This document shows, one piece after another, positions 2,923 to 63,455 of a DNA stretch of 63,455 bases. The DNA lies in the NCBI GenBank assembly GCA_044229075.1, contig JBGATS010000005.1, forward strand, positions 1-63,455. Reading direction: 5' to 3'. The position numbers and the translations under genes are program-made. Position 1 is the first letter of the stretch. Each line of letters begins with the position of its first letter. The notes below the pieces were generated by a model, which did no database searches, was not told the origin of the DNA, and saw only the letters and a list, made by a program, of their open reading frames with translations. Source of the stretch: Minisyncoccia bacterium (lineage in GTDB: Bacteria; Patescibacteriota; Minisyncoccia; Phycocordibacterales; UBA1006).

Positions 2923-2963
2923 AATAACAAAACACCCTTATAAGATAAGGGTGTTTTGTTATT
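2923..2963. terminator. Perfect 19-bp inverted repeat, probable intrinsic terminator
   Basis: AATAACAAAACACCCTTAT-aag-ATAAGGGTGTTTTGTTATT, lying between the end of 2998-4197 and the start of the methylase operon. Confidence 0.65.
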
Positions 2964-2997
2964 CGTATAACTGCCATTTTATACGTTTTTTATATCT

Positions 2998-4197
2998 TTA
3001 AAAAATGTTGTTAAATATAATATATGCGTCAGTTGCTTCCAGGATTGGTTTTTTGTTTTTAGGGTGTATATTTTCAATGTTGTTTCTTTTTAAAAAACCT
3101 TGGAATGAAGTTGAATTTCTTCCGACATTCAGTCTGTAGTCTTTTCCAAATCTATTAGATTTTGGAAACTTTTTTTCAAAGTCACTTATTTTTATCCTTG
3201 TATCACCTTCAGGAAAATGTTCCACAATTCTTCTAAGTATTTTTATGTATTTAGGTTCTTTTATTTGATATGATAACTCTCCTTTATTATAATGATGAAT
3301 GCGGTTATTTTTTACAAAAAATACTTTTTTACTCACGTGTTCAATAGTTTCGCCTTGATTATTATCTTGAATATAGAAATGAATTCTTTGTAAATGGTTA
3401 GTAATATCTGTTTTTGGTATAACACTTAATTCTGCAGTTTTTTCAGTTAATATACCTACATAGTCATTGTATTCTTGTTTCGTGTGTATTTTTTCGAATA
3501 TCTTTGTATTTAAATACTCCATTGATCTTTTTTCTGAATACTCGTCTGTATTAATTTTTGGTGCAGATGGTTTTAGGTCAAATTCCTCAAAAAGGGTATT
3601 CTTTTCTTTCAAGAAATCCAATGACTGAGTAATTGATTTTGTATATCTTTTTGTATAGAAATCTTCTTTATTAACAAAATCTTCTATATCTTTAGATATA
3701 GACATTTCAACACCACTTCTTTTTCCTTGTTTAAATAAAGTCTGAACATTTTTTTCAAATCCCAGGTCTATAACTTTTTGTACAATGTCACCTAAATCCA
3801 TACTTATATCACCATAATCAATCTTAAGAGGTGATAGATTTATATCAGATGAATTACCATTTAACTTAGTCTTAATATCAAAAAAGTCCCAATTTATTTC
3901 TTTTTCATTAAAAATGCCTAATGCTTTTGTTTTTTTCTCTAAAGTTGTAGTTAGTTTCTGTATTTTATCTATAATACTTTTTTCTAGTGTATTAAGATCA
4001 TTCTTTTCAGAAAGAAAATTATTAGTCTCTACTGTTATTCCTGAAACTAATGTAGCTCCGTCTATTTTTAAGAAATTCATATAATCACAAAAACTGACTA
4101 AGAATTCACGATCTGTTTGTGATAATATAACACGCTCGTACAGTGCATGTTCTTTTTGTAAAAGAAGACTACTTTCCATATGTATCAATCCTAGCAC
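2998..4197 (-). CDS. Hypothetical protein (AT-rich, 399 aa)
   Basis: Long uninterrupted ORF with no recognised motif. The C-terminal ~90 aa might be a winged-helix domain (speculative). Confidence 0.7.
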   Translation of the reverse strand: MLGLIHMESSLLLQKEHALYERVILSQTDREFLVSFCDYMNFLKIDGATLVSGITVETNNFLSEKNDLNTLEKSIIDKIQKLTTTLEKKTKALGIFNEKEINWDFFDIKTKLNGNSSDINLSPLKIDYGDISMDLGDIVQKVIDLGFEKNVQTLFKQGKRSGVEMSISKDIEDFVNKEDFYTKRYTKSITQSLDFLKEKNTLFEEFDLKPSAPKINTDEYSEKRSMEYLNTKIFEKIHTKQEYNDYVGILTEKTAELSVIPKTDITNHLQRIHFYIQDNNQGETIEHVSKKVFFVKNNRIHHYNKGELSYQIKEPKYIKILRRIVEHFPEGDTRIKISDFEKKFPKSNRFGKDYRLNVGRNSTSFQGFLKRNNIENIHPKNKKPILEATDAYIIFNNIF

Positions 4198-57822: not shown

Positions 57823-57891
57823 CTCAGCAGATGATTTTGTAAAATAAGAACCACCTGACAAAAGGGTGGTTTTGTGATATATATAAAAAAT

Positions 57892-59649
57892 ATGATAAAT
57901 CCAAATCCTGCAAAAATAGAAGATCTTCTGAGGTTGTCAGCAAAATATGAAGTTCCAAGGTATCAAAGACAATATACTTGGGGAAAATCAGAAGCTTTAG
58001 AATTTCTTGATGATTTAAAAAGTTTTGGAAATGAGAATTCCCAAGGAAGCTTGTTTTTAGGTACGGTTATTTTTGATGTTTCTGAGCTAAATAATTCTAT
58101 TATTAAAATAGTTGACGGACAACAAAGAATTACAACAATCTTAATTCTTTTAATTGCATGTAGAGAAGTTGCGAAAAGGATTAATTCTGTATCTTTTGCT
58201 CAGGAAATACAAAATAAAATTACGTTTATATCAAGAACTGGAGAATCTGTTGGTCCAAGATTAATAACATCTGAATCCATTAAAGATATTTTTAGTTATA
58301 TTTCTAAATCTGATTGGGGTGGAGTCTTTGTTGATAAGTTAAATAATAGAAGTATTAAAAGACAAGTTAATAAAATAAAACCAATTTATGATTTCTTTTT
58401 TAAAGAAATTCAAAATTTCAATCATAATGAACTAGAGAGGTTTATTAATGCTGTTTACGATTCTTATGTTGTAAGAATTGATATTGAAAATGAATTAGAA
58501 GCATTTAGTATTTTTGAAAGAACAAATGCGAGAGGGGTTGATCTTGAAGCTTCTGATTTACTTAAAAATTATCTATTCCAATCAGGTATTGAGGGATTGG
58601 ATGAAACATGGTCTCAAATAATTGAGAATTCAGGAGGAACAATCTTGAGAATGTTAAAGTATTTTTATGTTTCCAAAAAGGGTTATGTTAGTAAGTCGAA
58701 TTTGTATAAAGCTATAAAAAGTTATTCAACAGAAATAGGGCCATTAAATCTTGTTAATGAGATTGATGAATTTTCTAGATTCTATTCAATAATAAGATCT
58801 GGCGAGATAAGTCAACTCCAAGATTATTTAAAATTAATAGGCTATATTACACTACCTCAAGATCAAGAAAAGATTCAAAAATTATTTAGCAGTATTGAAG
58901 CTCTAAGATTGTTTAAAGTAACACAGGTATACCCTTTAATTTATTCTGCACTAAAGTCTTTCATCAAAAATGGTCATGATAATAATACAGATTCAAAGAA
59001 ATTAATTAATTTCTTTGAAAAATTAGAAAAATATCATTTCGTTAATAATGCAATATGTGAAAGGGTTGGAAATGAGGTTGAAAAGTTATATTCTGATTAT
59101 TGTAAATTTTTCTCAGAAACAAATAATTTTATTGGAACCTTAAATGAACTAACTGTAAGCCTGTCTGAAAAAATTGCATTAAAAGATGAGTTCGTTTCAA
59201 GATTTAGTGACATTTCATATTCTTCAGATTCAATAGCTTTAATATCTTATATATTTGATCGTTTGAATAATTACGGTGTTTTTCCAGCGTCTTGGATCAA
59301 AATATTTAATCCAAGTGAGAAAGTTACGAGAAGAGCTCATAATATTGAACATATTTTCCCGCAGAATCCAGTAGGTGGTATTAATTCAGATATTTCTGAC
59401 TATATTGATAATATTGGTAATTTGATTGTAATTAGCTTTAGAACCAATTCTAGTCTAGGAAACCTCTTACCTGAAGAGAAAGTTAAAAAGCTTGAAAATG
59501 AATTATTTCCACAAATTCAAAATCTAGATTATGTTAGAAAATTTATTGAAAAATATAAAGAATTTTCACCTAATTGGAATAAAGATATTATCTTAAAAAG
59601 ATCTGAAGATTTAGCAGTTGAGTCTTATGATAATGTTTGGAAGTTTTAG
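57892..59649 (+). CDS. DUF262 + DUF1524/HNH protein (GmrSD-family modification-dependent restriction enzyme)
   Basis: VPRYQRQYTW, IVDGQQRITT, FERTNARG (DUF262); IEHIFPQ and IGNL...NSSLGN (HNH). Markedly AT-rich. Start is probably the ATG at 57892. Confidence 0.85.
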   Translation: MINPNPAKIEDLLRLSAKYEVPRYQRQYTWGKSEALEFLDDLKSFGNENSQGSLFLGTVIFDVSELNNSIIKIVDGQQRITTILILLIACREVAKRINSVSFAQEIQNKITFISRTGESVGPRLITSESIKDIFSYISKSDWGGVFVDKLNNRSIKRQVNKIKPIYDFFFKEIQNFNHNELERFINAVYDSYVVRIDIENELEAFSIFERTNARGVDLEASDLLKNYLFQSGIEGLDETWSQIIENSGGTILRMLKYFYVSKKGYVSKSNLYKAIKSYSTEIGPLNLVNEIDEFSRFYSIIRSGEISQLQDYLKLIGYITLPQDQEKIQKLFSSIEALRLFKVTQVYPLIYSALKSFIKNGHDNNTDSKKLINFFEKLEKYHFVNNAICERVGNEVEKLYSDYCKFFSETNNFIGTLNELTVSLSEKIALKDEFVSRFSDISYSSDSIALISYIFDRLNNYGVFPASWIKIFNPSEKVTRRAHNIEHIFPQNPVGGINSDISDYIDNIGNLIVISFRTNSSLGNLLPEEKVKKLENELFPQIQNLDYVRKFIEKYKEFSPNWNKDIILKRSEDLAVESYDNVWKF

Positions 59650-59717: not shown

Positions 59718-60962
59718 ATGTCACCATTCAATTTCAACATCCTCAAAAAACTCCCTGGAACACTCGCGCGCGTAGGGGAAATCCATACACCACACGGGGT
59801 GATACAGACGCCGTGTTTTGTGACTGTGGGGACAAAGGCGACCGTGAAGGCGCTCACTCCAGAAATGATTCACGGCCTGGGTGCACAGGTTGTTCTCGCC
59901 AACACGTATCATTTATACCTGCAACCTGGTGATGATATTGTTGCGTTGCATGGTGGGTTTCCACGTATGATGAATTGGACTGGTCCAACGATGACCGACA
60001 GTGGTGGATTCCAAGTATTTTCACTCGGCACTGCATTTGATCAAAAGGTAGGGAAACTCGCGAACACAGAACAGATTATTCGTGAACAGATTAACGAGGA
60101 AACCGGAGAGCGAAAGAATAAAACTTCCAACATGGTAACAATTGATGAAGAAGGAGTAACCTTTCGTTCTATCAAGGATGGATCATCGCATCGATTTACA
60201 CCAGAACGATCTATGGAGATTCAATGGAATCTGGGTGCTGATATGATTTTTGCATTTGACGAATGTACGTCACCACTTGCGCCCTATGATTATCAGGTCG
60301 AGGCAATGAATCGTACTCATCGATGGGCATTACGATGTCTGGATCGTCATAATCAACTTGATCATGAAAAACGTCAAGCTCTCTTTGCGGTGGTACAGGG
60401 TGGACGATTTGCCGATCTGCGTAAACAGTCTGCAGAAATTCTTGCAAACATGAAAAACGAACAAGGTGATGAATTCGACGGGTTCGGCATTGGCGGGTCA
60501 TTTGAAAAAGAAGACTTGGGATCTGCGGTAAAATGGGTGAATGAAATTTTACCCGAAGGCAAACCTCGTCACCTGCTGGGAATCGGGGAACCGATTGATT
60601 TGTTCCTGGGTGTAGAAAATGGATGCGATACGTTCGACTGTGTTTCCCCAACACGTATTGCGCGTCATGGACAATTCCATACGATCAATGGAAAAAGAAA
60701 TATCAAGAATGCACGATTCAAAACTGATATGGGGAAACTGGATGCATCGTGTATGTGTTATGCATGTAATCATTATACACCAAGTTATATTCACCACCTG
60801 ATCCGATCAGGGGAAATTCTGGGGGCGACGTTACTGTCGATTCATAACTTATTTTTTATCAACAAACTCGTGGCAGATATTCGCGAGTCGCTGGTGACAG
60901 AAAATTTCTTCTCGTTCAAGGAATCGTTTTTGGGGCAGTATTATGGTGCTAACTCAAAATAG
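59718..60962 (+). CDS. tgt: tRNA-guanine transglycosylase
   Basis: TPHGVIQTP, LANTYHL, TDSGGFQVFSL, VQGG, PRHLLGIG, FDCVSPTR, CMCYAC zinc site, HNL. Confidence 0.96.
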   Translation: MSPFNFNILKKLPGTLARVGEIHTPHGVIQTPCFVTVGTKATVKALTPEMIHGLGAQVVLANTYHLYLQPGDDIVALHGGFPRMMNWTGPTMTDSGGFQVFSLGTAFDQKVGKLANTEQIIREQINEETGERKNKTSNMVTIDEEGVTFRSIKDGSSHRFTPERSMEIQWNLGADMIFAFDECTSPLAPYDYQVEAMNRTHRWALRCLDRHNQLDHEKRQALFAVVQGGRFADLRKQSAEILANMKNEQGDEFDGFGIGGSFEKEDLGSAVKWVNEILPEGKPRHLLGIGEPIDLFLGVENGCDTFDCVSPTRIARHGQFHTINGKRNIKNARFKTDMGKLDASCMCYACNHYTPSYIHHLIRSGEILGATLLSIHNLFFINKLVADIRESLVTENFFSFKESFLGQYYGANSK

Positions 60963-60967
60963 AATAC

Positions 60968-60995
60968 TCGACAAATATTCATATTCTGCTATAAT
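60968..60995 (+). promoter_or_regulatory. sigma70 promoter of the DGR target gene
   Basis: TCGACA-N16-TATAAT with extended TG. Confidence 0.55.
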
Positions 60996-61036
60996 AGAAC
61001 AGAATATTCAAAAACAATTAAATTAAATAAGAAAAT

Positions 61037-61672
61037 ATGAAATTTCCAAAAGTAACACAATTGGCAGCAAGCACTGCAGATCAAGAACTAAAAGCGGAAC
61101 TTGATCAATTGCTTAAACTTGCAGCAGACGTAGTCGCAAAAATCATTGAAGTCATTGGTAAGATTTTCATCAAAACAAATACCGTTATCAATGGCACACA
61201 ACTTGCCGAAGGCAGTAGTACTATTGAACGTCAATTGGAAAACTTCAAAGAAGTTGCCAAAGCACGTGGCATCACGAATGTTTGGACTGGTGATAACATC
61301 ACCAGATGGTTCCCAAACGAAAAGGTTTCAAAAACCATTGCTGGGCCCAGCCGATTATTACGTTTTATGAAAAGTATTACACACGCAAAAATCATTGACG
61401 GCTGCAAGCAGTTAAATGCTTACCAGGAATATGATTTGAGTGATGGAATCGAGCGTGCAACTGCATTGGTAGTTGCGGGTGAATTAGATAAAAAAGATAA
61501 TACAGGCATTATTATTTATCTGACAAACTGCAAAGACGGCACTCCGTGCAGGCTGGGCGTGTGGCGTTACGGTGACGGTGAGTTGCGCCTCGGTGTTAGC
61601 AAGGTCAATCCAGACTATGAGTGGAACGCTGGTTACGGTGTTCTGTGCAGCAACGAAAACTTGGATGTATAA
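61037..61672 (+). CDS. DGR target (variable) protein
   Basis: The 3' end contains the VR matching the TR at 61971. VR-encoded CRLGVWRYGDGELRLGVSKVNPDYEWNAGYGVLCS is consistent with a C-type-lectin-like DGR display fold (fold inferred). Confidence 0.92.
   Translation: MKFPKVTQLAASTADQELKAELDQLLKLAADVVAKIIEVIGKIFIKTNTVINGTQLAEGSSTIERQLENFKEVAKARGITNVWTGDNITRWFPNEKVSKTIAGPSRLLRFMKSITHAKIIDGCKQLNAYQEYDLSDGIERATALVVAGELDKKDNTGIIIYLTNCKDGTPCRLGVWRYGDGELRLGVSKVNPDYEWNAGYGVLCSNENLDV
61545..61654 (+). repeat. DGR variable repeat (VR)
   Basis: 97/110 identical to the TR; all 13 differences are at TR adenines (8 A>G, 3 A>T, 2 A>C). Confidence 0.97.
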
Positions 61673-61684
61673 TCCTTTGTATTG

Positions 61685-61728
61685 GACCCTTTGTAGCTTT
61701 GATTCTTGAATCTCGGCTGCAAAGGGTC
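61685..61728. other. Post-VR hairpin/cruciform (candidate retrohoming recognition element)
   Basis: GACCCTTTGTAGC...GCTGCAAAGGGTC (12/13) enclosing the inner palindrome GATTC-tt-GAATC, 30 bp after the VR. Confidence 0.65.
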
Positions 61729-61735
61729 TTATTTT

Positions 61736-61744
61736 TGTTATAAT
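61736..61744 (+). promoter_or_regulatory. Extended -10 promoter, candidate start of the TR/DGR RNA
   Basis: TG-T-TATAAT right after the post-VR hairpin, about 225 nt upstream of the TR. Confidence 0.5.
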
Positions 61745-61970
61745 GAATGTACGAATGAATACGAAATCGGCTACGGCTTGTTTCTTCATCGTAGGAGTTG
61801 TCACGAACGGAATGTAAACAGGGTTTCTATTTACAGTGTTTCAAGACAAAGCTTGATATAAAAAATTTTTGTTGGTGGATGGAATTAGAGAATTTTAATG
61901 ATTCCGAATAAGATACAGTCATTTTCGTGTATACGAAAGACAGTGACAAGGACGGTTTCATCCACAAGAT

Positions 61971-62080
61971 CGTGCAGGCTGAACGTGTGGCGTAACGATG
62001 ACGGTAAGTTGAACCTCAATGTTAACAAGGTCAATCCAGACAATGAGTGGAACGCTGGTAACGGTGTTCTGTGCAGAAAC
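61971..62080 (+). repeat. DGR template repeat (TR)
   Basis: AAC/AAT-rich copy of the VR (32 A in 110 nt) lying between the target gene and avd/RT. Confidence 0.97.
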
Positions 62081-62089
62081 ACAAATTTT

Positions 62090-62114
62090 CTCTCCTATTT
62101 TTTATATAGGAGAG
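62090..62114. other. Hairpin immediately 3' of the TR, overlapping the avd stop
   Basis: CTCTCCTAT-N7-ATAGGAGAG followed by TTTTT. Confidence 0.55.
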
Positions 62115-62458
62115 TTTTTCGTTTCCAGTGTTTTTTCAATTCCTTTTTTCCATCCGCCCAACATTCGTCCAATTTCGTCCAGATCAGCAGAGATTTTTAT
62201 ATACTGATTGTTTGCCATGATTTTTCCTTCCCATGCGACAGATAGTAGAAACTTTACCATATCCAATTGTCCTGTTGCACGCACGATGGTATTTATTTTC
62301 TCAGTTGGGTTTTGATATGTCGCTTGATACACATAGGCAAGCATGTTCAAGAAATGTTGATCGATATTATTGCCCAGTGTGTATCGTGATGTTTTCGGAA
62401 AATTTTTCAAAATCTCCATCCATGCAATATAAGCGATTTTAGATTTTGGTAAAATCAC
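62102..62458 (-). CDS. avd: DGR accessory variability determinant (Avd-like four-helix bundle)
   Basis: FPKTSRYTLGNNID...LDMVKFLLSVAWE...LDEIGRMLGGW is the bAvd/four-helix-bundle signature; located between TR and RT on the opposite strand. Confidence 0.88.
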   Translation of the reverse strand: MILPKSKIAYIAWMEILKNFPKTSRYTLGNNIDQHFLNMLAYVYQATYQNPTEKINTIVRATGQLDMVKFLLSVAWEGKIMANNQYIKISADLDEIGRMLGGWKKGIEKTLETKNSPI

Positions 62459-62471
62459 TGGTAATTTCGCC

Positions 62472-62482
62472 GGGGGGGGGGG
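62472..62482. repeat. G11 homopolymer between the avd and RT starts
   Basis: Eleven consecutive G in a low-GC region. Confidence 0.9.
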
Positions 62483-62495
62483 TACTATTATTGGA

Positions 62496-63455
62496 ATGAA
62501 AAAAATTTTGAGTCATGTATACCAAGATATCATATCAATGGAAAATTTGCTTGCCGCATGGCAGGAATTTAAAAATGGAAAACGCAGTAAGCCAGATGTT
62601 GCAGAATTTGAGCGAAATTTAATGGATAACCTATTTGATCTACAGGAACAATTATTGAATTATTCATATCAACACAGCGGATATAAAGCGTTCAGAATTA
62701 ACGACCCAAAACCTCGTGACATTCATAAAGCATTAGTGCGTGATCGGTTAATGCACCATACTATCTATCGGCAATTCTATTGGTTTTTTGATCGAACATT
62801 TATTTACGACTCGTATTCATGCAGAATTGGTAAGGGAACTCATAAAGCAATCAATCGTTTCAAGGAATTTTCCAGAAAATGTTCGCGTAATAATACTCGG
62901 ACTTGTTGGGTTCTGAAATGCGATATCAAAAAATTCTTTGCAAGTATTGATCATGAAATACTCAAGCAGATTTTGCGGAGCCATATTGATGACAGTGATA
63001 CGATTGGATTATTGGAAAATATTATTGATAGTTTTTGTACAAGTGGCAACCCACATAGTGGTTTGCCACTTGGTAATCTGACTTCTCAATTGCTCGTAAA
63101 TATTTACATGAACAAGTTTGATCAATTTGTAAAACATCAACTGAAACAAAAATACTATATTCGGTATGCAGATGATTTCGTATTTCTTGCAGAGAGTAAA
63201 AATGAATTAGAGAAATTATTGCCGTTGATACGGAAATTTTTATGGAAATCGTTACGACTAGAATTACACCCTGAAAAGGTGTTCATCAGAACAGTTGCAT
63301 CAGGGGTAGACTTTTTAGGGTGGGTACATTTTGAGAAGCATAGAGTATTGCGGATGAGTACAAAACGTCGTATGATTCGTAATTTAAAGGACACTCAAGA
63401 ACTAGAGTCCATAATAGCATATAGAGGGATGTTGTCTCATGGGAATACGTGGAAA
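62496..63455 (+). CDS. DGR reverse transcriptase, partial (runs off the right edge)
   Basis: Open frame from ATG 62496 (MKKILSHVYQDIISMENLLAAW) with KPRDIHKA..RDR, SYSCRIGKGTH, CDIKKFFASIDH, GLPLGNLTSQ (63060), YADD (63165-63176) and GVDFLGW. Absent from the ORF track because no stop lies in the window. Confidence 0.96.
   Translation, partial: MKKILSHVYQDIISMENLLAAWQEFKNGKRSKPDVAEFERNLMDNLFDLQEQLLNYSYQHSGYKAFRINDPKPRDIHKALVRDRLMHHTIYRQFYWFFDRTFIYDSYSCRIGKGTHKAINRFKEFSRKCSRNNTRTCWVLKCDIKKFFASIDHEILKQILRSHIDDSDTIGLLENIIDSFCTSGNPHSGLPLGNLTSQLLVNIYMNKFDQFVKHQLKQKYYIRYADDFVFLAESKNELEKLLPLIRKFLWKSLRLELHPEKVFIRTVASGVDFLGWVHFEKHRVLRMSTKRRMIRNLKDTQELESIIAYRGMLSHGNTWK

Follow-up and report, generated by a model that had tools for sequence, protein, structure and literature searches.

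A conserved, structured leader RNA precedes the template repeat of a diversity-generating retroelement in a Minisyncoccia bacterium

A stretch of 63,455 nucleotides (nt) from a Minisyncoccia bacterium (the window) and related loci were examined around the template repeat (TR) of a diversity-generating retroelement (DGR). As judged by comparative sequence analysis, the leader preceding the TR is a conserved, previously undescribed structured RNA, with five predicted helices and a predicted long-range helix that clamps the TR. The best reading, to which a probability of roughly 0.7 is given, is that the TR is made as a separate, self-contained noncoding RNA of ~370 nt (~61751 to 62120, + strand) whose elements follow an order resembling that of the Bordetella phage DGR RNA after circular permutation. 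The structured leader RNA is new, and the gene order in which it is found was already known.

The locus comprises, in order, a target gene (+), the TR (+), avd (−), and a reverse transcriptase (RT) gene (+), in agreement with the earlier note, all of whose listed features were recovered at their coordinates. The target gene (61037 to 61672, +) is an open reading frame of 211 amino acids (aa) whose product had no match in Pfam. Its C-terminal end carries the variable repeat (VR; ~61545 to 61655, +, from the VR/TR alignment), which aligned without gaps to the TR (61971 to 62081, +), with the two repeats offset by 426 nt. Each of the internal VR/TR mismatches (14/14) was at a TR adenine, as expected of a DGR. 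The avd gene (accessory variability determinant; 62102 to 62458, −) encodes 118 aa from a GTG start and matched the Pfam family bAvd (PF22296; E = 4e-17) above the curated cut-off, as expected of a DGR Avd. The RT gene (62496 to 63455, +) matched Pfam RVT_1 (E = 4e-25) and is cut by the contig end, with the remaining 8 to 9 codons found on contig C9 or C5. The best solved relative of this RT in the PDB was the Bordetella phage DGR RT (8ub7; E = 9e-38), with RTs of group II introns and retrons well behind. On the basis of the A-specific TR/VR pair, the DGR-clade RT next to the TR, and Avd, the locus is a working DGR of the published CPR layout.

In a DNA run from another wastewater sample (X2), the VR differed from that of the window at ~14 sites, nearly all opposite TR adenines, and the VR flanks were ~98 to 99% identical. 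A-to-N diversification of the VR is ongoing, as measured by variation between samples rather than among reads within a sample. Directly 3′ of the VR lies an array of CTTTG/CTTGA-like repeats with a spacing of ~8 nt (61673 to 61712, +). Across 42 loci, these motifs had a modal spacing of 8 nt and averaged 3.1 per 90 nt after the VR, versus 0.21 after the TR and 0.49 in shuffles, and the array is a candidate target-side recognition element. A 13-bp hairpin with a T-rich run was also read from the sequence 3′ of the target gene (61685 to 61737, +; 61685 to 61697 with 61716 to 61728). GC-rich hairpins with T runs were found at the same place in relatives, and this hairpin is likely the target-gene terminator, a VR-side inverted repeat, or both.

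The order that the earlier note called inverted is already published as Architecture B3, TR-(avd)-RT with a reverse-strand avd, which represents 90% of CPR DGRs (Wu et al. 2018, PMC5758913); CPR cassettes of this architecture fall within DGR clade 2 of Roux et al. 2021 (PMC8144416). The gene order found here does not differ from the one in these surveys, whose descriptions do not extend to RNA structure, promoters, or terminators near the TR. Published conservation analysis has been confined to the 40 nt before and the 100 nt after the TR. The B3 layout was present in 29/29 close loci, with avd divergent from RT in 29/29 relatives, and in 15/20 more distant loci; in the other 5/20, no Avd homologue was detected by tblastn. 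A VR-leader-TR unit ended upstream of the RT in 17/20 distant loci.

An extended −10 box (TGTTATAAT; 61736 to 61744, +), the putative promoter of the TR RNA, aligned with TGnTAnnnT-type boxes in 24 related loci. Between this box and the TR are 226 nt (61745 to 61970), so that the promoter-like box and long noncoding leader described in the earlier note were both present. The note had also pointed to covariation across relatives as a check on this RNA, and a conserved, covarying structure was found, 5′ of the TR. Hairpin P1 (61763 to 61784, +; GAAAU-C-GGC-UACG-GCU-U-GUUUC) has a UACG tetraloop and was 99.5% paired, with compensatory change at 7/8 pairs (columns 33 to 41 with 46 to 54 of alignment A1). 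Hairpin domain P2 (61805 to 61842, +), placed by a constrained fold, has the stem and tetraloop design of P1; the corresponding helices (2 to 4 in A1) were 82 to 97% paired, and the window's own P2 departs from the consensus in having a divergent GUUU loop. Within the A/U-rich linker that follows, 61862 to 61873 (+) is predicted to pair with 62078 to 62089 (+), the TR 3′ end and its flank, as the 5′ and 3′ strands of the long-range helix. P3 (61875 to 61886 with 61954 to 61965, +) encloses P4 (61890 to 61893 with 61901 to 61904, +), a conserved, single-stranded AAUAAGAUACAG segment, and P5 (61918 to 61922 with 61937 to 61941, +). Across 50 sequences, the 61875 to 61965 region was 95.6% paired, with compensatory change at 20/21 pairs. 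Since the 3′ strand of P3 abuts the TR and the 3′ flank pairs with the linker, the TR is predicted to form a loop that P3 and the long-range helix clamp from either side. TR/VR homology began a median of 0.5 nt past P3 and ended a median of 4 nt inside the long-range helix.

Pairing was tested in a sequence-only MAFFT alignment of 24 loci, with slid partners as controls. The 57 proposed pairs were 91.3% paired (42 to 49% in slid controls) and had a covariation score of 0.707 (0.13 to 0.16 in slid controls), which was reached by 0/500 shuffles; double-sided, compensatory changes were found in 47/57 pairs. The long-range helix alone was 81% paired, versus 41 to 55% when slid, with compensatory changes in 9/14 pairs, and the duplex energy of cognate strands was −6.6 kcal/mol, versus −4.0 kcal/mol for noncognate strands (0/20000 permutations). 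RNAalifold on the full alignment recovered neither the long-range helix nor the terminator, the arms of which do not share one register in the MAFFT alignment. Explicit column pairs were used to assess the long-range helix, and the 3′ hairpin was assessed in each sequence separately. Several G-U pairs were near invariant, for example in 22 to 23 of 24 loci at three positions, so only the + strand fits an RNA.

A covariance model (R1) built on the leader matched the window at 61856 to 61971 (85.4 bits, E = 2e-16). Matches were found in 119/401 genomes of the order, and 101 of these 119 also contained a DGR RT (odds ratio, 32; p = 2e-41). Among 150 listed matches, 104 preceded a same-strand RT by 343 to 658 nt (median, 541 nt). 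The RT-less leader copies that were inspected were decayed cassettes or target-linked TR modules. Complete target-leader-TR-hairpin modules lacking any avd or RT within 2.5 kb were found adjoining unrelated genes; these stand-alone modules kept the hairpin and U-tract, and their TR/VR mismatches were A specific (9/9, 19/19, and 18/18). Among the most distant DGRs, the covariance model weakly matched some and missed others, including the second DGR of this genome (contig C3); this most distant group was not reached by nhmmer with a leader profile. The leader of the second DGR shares the design described here, as judged by eye only. A scan of the window against Rfam 15 returned no family at E ≤ 1 except a chance RsaA match inside the RT, and no family was found in a scan of leaders from 12 relatives.

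Just past the TR is a 9-bp hairpin with a 7-nt loop (62090 to 62098 with 62106 to 62114, +), directly followed by TTTTTCGTTT; hairpin and U5 together span 62090 to 62119. As the earlier note had observed, this hairpin and T-tract overlie the end of avd, with the stop codon (62102 to 62104) in the loop. It was the sole + strand terminator-like site within 60900 to 63455. The same hairpin and T-tract followed the TR in 24/24 close relatives (folding z-scores, −1.8 to −7.2), which exceeds what chance would give, and, analyzed per sequence, TTTT after the hairpin was invariant (24/24 loci). A GC-containing stem and then a U-tract, the sequence features of an intrinsic (Rho-independent) terminator, were found in 24/24 loci. 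Hairpin and T-tract were kept in all three avd reading frames (0, 1, and 2), such that one stretch of conserved nucleotides encodes KQNSP, NKTP, or TKNSP, depending on the Avd frame. The hairpin lacks a U-rich tail on the minus strand. It probably forms the 3′ end of the TR RNA, in the manner of an intrinsic terminator, and, by analogy, is possibly also an Avd-binding stem-loop.

Expression of the leader and TR was observed in three metatranscriptome runs, with contigs at 61777 to 62041 (X8), 61840 to 61972 (X24), and 61755 to 61924 (X25). The contig starting at 61755 is from an independent study; the other two runs are oligo-dT libraries of one sample, and none of the RNA contigs carries strand information. 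No RNA contig covered 61541 to 61754, avd, or RT in the three runs, in which a depth of 0 is not proof of absence. None extended past 62041, with contigs breaking at the TR/VR repeat.

The 37-nt gap between avd and RT contains a G11 simple-sequence repeat (62472 to 62482, +), which was one G longer in run X2. Among 45 loci, the gap contained G7 to G13 in 29 and (GA)n in 7. Upstream of the G-tract is a conserved TGGTAAAA(G/T) extended −10-like box that, from its sequence, could drive transcription of RT. A poly-C tract inside avd was considered and rejected, as a conserved GTG/TTG start (V/L-L-x-K-x-K-x-x-Y-x-x-W) lies downstream of the tract. The distance from ATG 62516 to GTG 62458 is 58 nt, and the upstream ATG would be in frame only with C10 or C13.

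The shortness of this gap bears on a rather improbable alternative, in which the leader is functional, the 3′ hairpin is purely an Avd stem-loop, TR and RT are cotranscribed, and the avd antisense is a passive linker. Putative Avd-binding stem-loops, commonly of 9 bp, are found just downstream of the TR in 207/278 DGRs, including those of CPR (Handa et al., bioRxiv 10.1101/2023.10.23.563531), and a simple scan for promoters gave none for RT on the + strand, although the −10-like box could supply one. An invariant U-tract abutting the stem is explained neither by Avd binding nor by avd coding, however, and stand-alone modules retain both hairpin and U-tract beside unrelated genes. The lack of RNA contigs downstream of the hairpin in the three runs also argues against cotranscription.

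Still less likely is the model of the earlier note, which had the TR transcript pass the hairpin, the avd-antisense spacer prime cDNA synthesis, and complementarity between TR RNA and avd mRNA act in regulation. The spacer of BPP-1, the Bordetella phage element, is 3′ of its TR, and the TR-to-RT interval here is occupied by opposite-strand avd. With no minus-strand U-tract after the hairpin, avd mRNA may enter TR antisense, and a convergent overlap of at least 13 to 18 nt is real. Identity at avd third-codon positions was flat and near background, however (0.29 to 0.45, versus 0.26 expected at random), which indicates no synonymous-site constraint in avd. In addition, the conserved hairpin and TTTT directly follow the TR in all loci, A-specific TR/VR differences occur in modules with no downstream avd, no RNA contigs covered avd, and the strong covarying structure is on the 5′ side instead. 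A functional avd-antisense spacer was therefore not supported, and a 3′ spacer of the BPP-1 type was not found in an interval that is opposite-strand avd, lacks synonymous conservation, and is dispensable in stand-alone modules. The proposed dual-use constraint holds where the hairpin overlaps the avd 3′ end (~13 to 37 nt). Of the two observations that the note had named as contrary to its model, one applies, as the 62090 hairpin is probably where the RNA terminates; the other, an absence of conserved structure, does not, as such structure exists upstream of the TR.

That the leader is outside the retroelement RNA altogether, as a 5′ or 3′ untranslated regulatory element, small RNA, or peptide gene merely neighboring DGRs, is highly improbable: it is compatible with leader matches in 18 genomes with no RT match and with an association that is genomic, and it is opposed by the fixed distance and strand relative to RT, the bracketing of the TR within a few nucleotides by P3 and the long-range helix, the nature of the RT-less copies, and the pattern of compensatory changes, on which peptide coding was rejected.

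Under the preferred reading, that of a self-contained TR RNA, transcription would start from the RNA's own extended −10 promoter. The transcript would contain P1 and P2 with UACG-type loops, the A/U-rich linker, a 12-bp P3 enclosing P4, P5, and the single-stranded segment, and then the TR. These would be followed by a short 3′ flank pairing back to the linker and by the hairpin and U-tract overlapping the convergent end of avd. The BPP-1 DGR RNA consists of the avd 3′ end, TR, and Sp, and acts within a bRT-Avd ribonucleoprotein (RNP) (Handa et al. 2018, PMC6182149; bioRxiv 10.1101/2023.10.23.563531). By order and position, the long-range helix would correspond to the phage template:primer duplex, at which cDNA synthesis starts, with 61862 to 61873 proposed as the primer-side strand and 62078 to 62089 as the template-side strand of the initiation duplex. 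P3 may likewise correspond to the phage "stop" duplex, which immediately precedes the TR, and the 3′ hairpin to the phage Avd-binding stem-loop. The BPP-1 RNA is bound by RT and Avd and is cis-primed from the 2′-OH of an adenosine in its spacer; the junction of the long-range helix here has G/U in place of this A.

In both RNAs, the TR is flanked by one duplex immediately 5′ of it and by another that includes its 3′ end, and a stem-loop of ~9 to 11 bp comes directly after it. Past the stop-type strand, both have a small stem-loop, then a conserved single strand rich in A, then another stem-loop, and both elements have homologous RTs and an Avd. In contrast to BPP-1, the partner strands of the TR duplexes come from the 5′ leader rather than a 3′ spacer, the accessory RNA (~220 nt) is 5′ rather than 3′ of the TR, two extra 5′ hairpins are present, and the RNA seems to end ~40 nt past the TR. 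The two RNAs share no sequence similarity. Their elements match in order only after circular permutation; the same cyclic order with the ends moved suggests a circularly permuted RNA.

Structured RNAs beside RT genes, termed RT-10 and other RT-n motifs, were found by comparative genomics; RT-10 is the BPP-1 TR-RT spacer, and roles for further motifs in other DGRs were put forward as speculation (Weinberg et al. 2017, PMC5737381). The leader is likewise a structured RNA next to an RT gene and differs in that neither the window nor the 12 relatives had an Rfam 15 match (E ≤ 0.1 to 1). Retron msr-msd noncoding RNAs are self-contained template RNAs, separable from the RT, in which a long-range helix closes the reverse-transcribed part and 2′-OH cis-priming occurs at the helix junction. 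The element described here, unlike a retron, has a bRT-like RT, an Avd, no msr/msd organization, and a product for A-mutagenic homing into the VR; retron identity was rejected on RT similarity, with 8ub7 as the best match.

A broader proposal, held tentatively and with somewhat less than even confidence, is that B3 DGRs of CPR use a circularly permuted DGR RNA in which the primer strand, stop duplex, and RT/Avd-binding elements are 5′ of the TR and the end is at a terminator/Avd-binding hairpin. Such an RNA would be an autonomous gene of ~370 nt that could be duplicated, located far from RT and avd, and served in trans, and the conserved, hypermutable poly-G/(GA)n tract between avd and RT may switch this pair on or off.

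CPR/Patescibacteria hold one of the largest DGR clades, and knowledge of the mechanism is confined to a phage element that is laid out differently. A defined TR RNA would explain how the layout with inverted avd can work, and the model predicts the start and stop sites of cDNA synthesis. The covariance model locates TRs, including remote and orphan ones, independently of RT. As a compact template cassette that would act in trans, the RNA might be tried in DGR-based tools for targeted mutagenesis, and the generality of the BPP-1 RNP mechanism would be directly testable in a distant lineage.

A complete DGR occupied the final 2.4 kb of the window, one entire contig (C11, 63,455 nt) of a 13-contig, 721-kb genome. 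ORFs, Pfam matches (bAvd and RVT_1), and alignment of the template repeat (TR) with the variable repeat (VR) bore out the order and strands given in the earlier note: target, TR, reverse-strand avd, and reverse transcriptase (RT). The target ORF (61037-61672, +) ended in the VR (~61545-61655, +), which aligned without gaps to the TR (61971-62081, +), with 14/14 internal mismatches on TR adenines. The avd ORF (62102-62458, -) matched bAvd (E = 4e-17), and the RT (from 62496, +) matched RVT_1, its closest solved relative being Bordetella phage DGR RT 8ub7 (E = 9e-38). The RT ORF was cut by the end of the window; the final 140 nt recurred without differences at the beginning of contigs C9 and C5, both of which completed it (L004, C9:1-6000; L005, C5:1-6000), with differing last 8 to 9 codons. 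Beyond the RT end, C9 looks by eye like the 5' end of a 23S rRNA gene. Depth in a source-like DNA run (X1) was 31 over 62907-63455 versus 11 elsewhere (~3x), and the 3' half of the RT is therefore a repeat or common to several strains or cassettes. Two genes upstream of the DGR, adjoining tRNA-guanine transglycosylase, was a gene for a GmrSD-type restriction endonuclease (57874-59649; GmrSD_N, E = 2e-32; GmrSD_C, E = 4e-13).

This gene order is already known as Architecture B3, TR-(avd)-RT, in which parentheses denote the reverse strand (Wu et al. 2018, PMC5758913). A homologous RT was found in 143/401 sampled genomes of the same order. In all 29 close loci fetched, avd was divergent from the RT, and the succession of VR, ~270- to 375-nt spacer, TR, and avd(-) was recognizable in 25 of the 29. 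More distant DGRs (RT 44 to 55% identical) also had this layout, as did a second complete DGR in the same genome (L035, contig C3:2962-4993), with VR at 2962-3096, TR at 3464-3598 (18/19 mismatches at A), avd at 3626-3970 (-), and an RT from 3995 that was 44 to 47% identical to that of the window.

This locus brings to light a structured TR RNA that is widespread, previously undescribed, and a variant of the known DGR RNA; its leader is structured, linked to DGRs, and expressed. An extended -10 box read from the sequence (TGTTATAAT, 61736-61744, +) and a 226-nt noncoding leader preceding the TR were present much as the earlier note had described (~225 nt). The covariation analysis across relatives that it called for yielded conserved helices in the leader and around the TR in 24 loci. 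Conserved blocks were visible in a sequence-only MAFFT alignment of the putative RNA of these loci, from the -10 box to the T-tract. RNAalifold predicted P1 (61763-61784) and P2 (~61805-61842), hairpins of one design with UACG-type loops, and P3 (61875-61886 with 61954-61965), a 12-bp helix whose 3' strand ends at the TR and which encloses P4 (61890-61893 with 61901-61904) and P5 (61918-61922 with 61937-61941). To these was added a long-range helix joining the A/U-rich linker immediately 5' of P3 to the segment immediately 3' of the TR (61862-61873 with 62078-62089). In the sequence-only alignment, the 57 proposed pairs were 91.3% paired versus 42 to 49% with slid partners, with a covariation score of 0.707 versus 0.13 to 0.16 and changes on both sides in 47 pairs; 0/500 shuffles reached any of these measures. 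The long-range helix by itself was 81% paired versus 41 to 55% (score, 0.33 versus 0.07 to 0.15), and cognate linker/flank duplexes were more stable than noncognate ones (-6.6 versus -4.0 kcal/mol; 0/20,000 permutations). Near-invariant G-U pairs place the RNA on the + strand. TR/VR homology started a median of 0.5 nt past P3 and stopped a median of 4 nt within the long-range helix; thus, the TR is a loop clamped between two helices. No Rfam 15 family matched the leader of the window or of 12 relatives, and no description of this RNA was found in the literature.

A covariance model built on the linker and P3 to P5 (R1) matched 119/401 genomes. RNA and RT occurred together in 101 genomes, RT only in 42, RNA only in 18, and neither in 240 (odds ratio, 32; P = 2e-41). 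Among the matches listed, 104/150 lay 343 to 658 nt (median, 541) upstream of a same-strand RT. In 50 model-aligned sequences, 95.6% of cells were paired and 20/21 pairs were compensatory, the alignment itself being structure fitted. R1 did not match the second DGR on C3, which had a leader of its own with, as judged by eye, the same hairpin motif, plus a terminator hairpin capped by GTAA.

The 9-bp hairpin and T-tract described in the earlier note were present (62090-62119, +; hairpin, 62090-62114), with the avd stop inside the hairpin loop. A 7- to 11-bp hairpin abutting an invariant TTTT directly followed the TR in 24/24 close loci; on the minus strand, no U-tract followed the hairpin. The avd frame through the hairpin varied among loci (0, 1, or 2), the position of the stop ranged from 37 nt short of the tract, on the side of the hairpin, to 24 nt past it, and the Avd tails KQNSP, NKTP, and TKNSP were identical nucleotides in different reading frames; these three results show that the constraint acts on nucleic acid rather than on Avd protein. 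The hairpin belongs with the TR unit rather than with avd. The idea that the antisense of the avd 3' end serves as the TR 3' spacer found no support past a short dual-use overlap. Third-codon-position identity was flat over the avd body (0.29 to 0.45 versus 0.26 expected at random), and nothing there pointed to a conserved RNA antisense to avd. R1 matches without a nearby RT included three complete modules of target, leader, TR, and hairpin/T-tract, whose surroundings to 2.5 kb contained neither avd nor RT and whose TR/VR mismatches were A-specific (L056, 9/9; L065, 19/19; L061, 18/18). The hairpin and T-tract thus persist where avd is absent, and avd-antisense sequence is unnecessary in cis. 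The RT/avd pair of the L065 genome was ~60 kb distant; judged by eye on its N-terminal residues, the gene after this module looks like MurC.

Contigs from the locus were found in three metatranscriptome runs, as assembled, strandless contigs rather than reads. Run X8 contained the target gene (61091-61540) and, separately, leader plus TR (61777-62041); X24, from the same sample, covered 61840-61972; and X25, an rRNA-depleted run from an independent study, covered 61755-61924, its 5' end lying 11 nt past the -10 box. No RNA contigs covered 61541-61754, avd, or RT in these runs, even at lowered stringency. DNA runs covered the whole locus evenly, which makes DNA carry-over an unlikely source of the RNA contigs.

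A ~98 to 99% identical strain in a different wastewater sample (DNA run X2) differed in the VR (61545-61655) at ~14 sites, almost all opposite TR adenines, and two of these covaried with changes in the TR of that strain (62005 and 62050); such sequence differences are evidence of DGR activity in nature. A CTTTG/CTTGA-like motif array followed the VR (61673-61712; dominant spacing, 8 nt, in 42 loci), averaging 3.1 motifs per 90 nt after the VR, where the region following the TR averaged 0.21 and shuffled sequence 0.49; like the IMH of the phage system, it marks the VR side and not the TR side. The 37-nt gap separating the avd and RT starts contained a G11 run (62472-62482), outside the conserved avd start and one G longer in X2. 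G7 to G13 occupied this gap in 29/45 related loci (from L006-L054), always with G on the RT-sense strand, (GA)9-16 replaced it in 7/45, and the most distant group had no tract. This tract is a conserved hypermutable repeat that may act as a phase-variable switch or provide the RT with a purine-rich leader/RBS element.

In the DGR RNA of Bordetella phage BPP-1, an upstream segment is followed by the TR, whose 3' end supplies the template strand for the primer duplex, an Avd-binding stem-loop, a primer strand ending in priming A56, two nucleotides, a stop strand paired with the upstream segment, a small stem-loop, unpaired adenosines and the single-stranded "thumb ring," and an RT-binding stem-loop (Handa et al., bioRxiv 10.1101/2023.10.23.563531). 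The window RNA runs P1, P2, linker (pairing with the TR 3' flank), P3 5' strand, P4, conserved A-rich single strand, P5, P3 3' strand (the segment immediately upstream of the TR), TR, flank, hairpin, and U-tract. The cyclic order is identical, with the ends moved and two additional 5' hairpins in the window RNA. From this shared order with moved ends, we propose that the window TR RNA may be a circularly permuted DGR RNA, the elements being mapped by order and position; cDNA priming would occur where the long-range helix meets P3, and synthesis would arrest at P3. The survey by Handa et al., which included CPR, took in no more than 40 nt before and 100 nt after each TR (bioRxiv 10.1101/2023.10.23.563531) and so would count the hairpin as an Avd-binding stem-loop and miss the leader.

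Other R1 matches without a nearby RT were decayed cassettes or relics. Relic loci included L055 (genome G093), L059 (G385, of the same family as the window's genome), L066 (G145), L057, L058, L060, L062, and L064. In some, the leader preceded TR-like sequence whose mismatches were not at A, and the hairpin was missing; others were cassettes with truncated or frameshifted RT/avd. R1 could serve to chart orphan TRs and the decay of DGRs.
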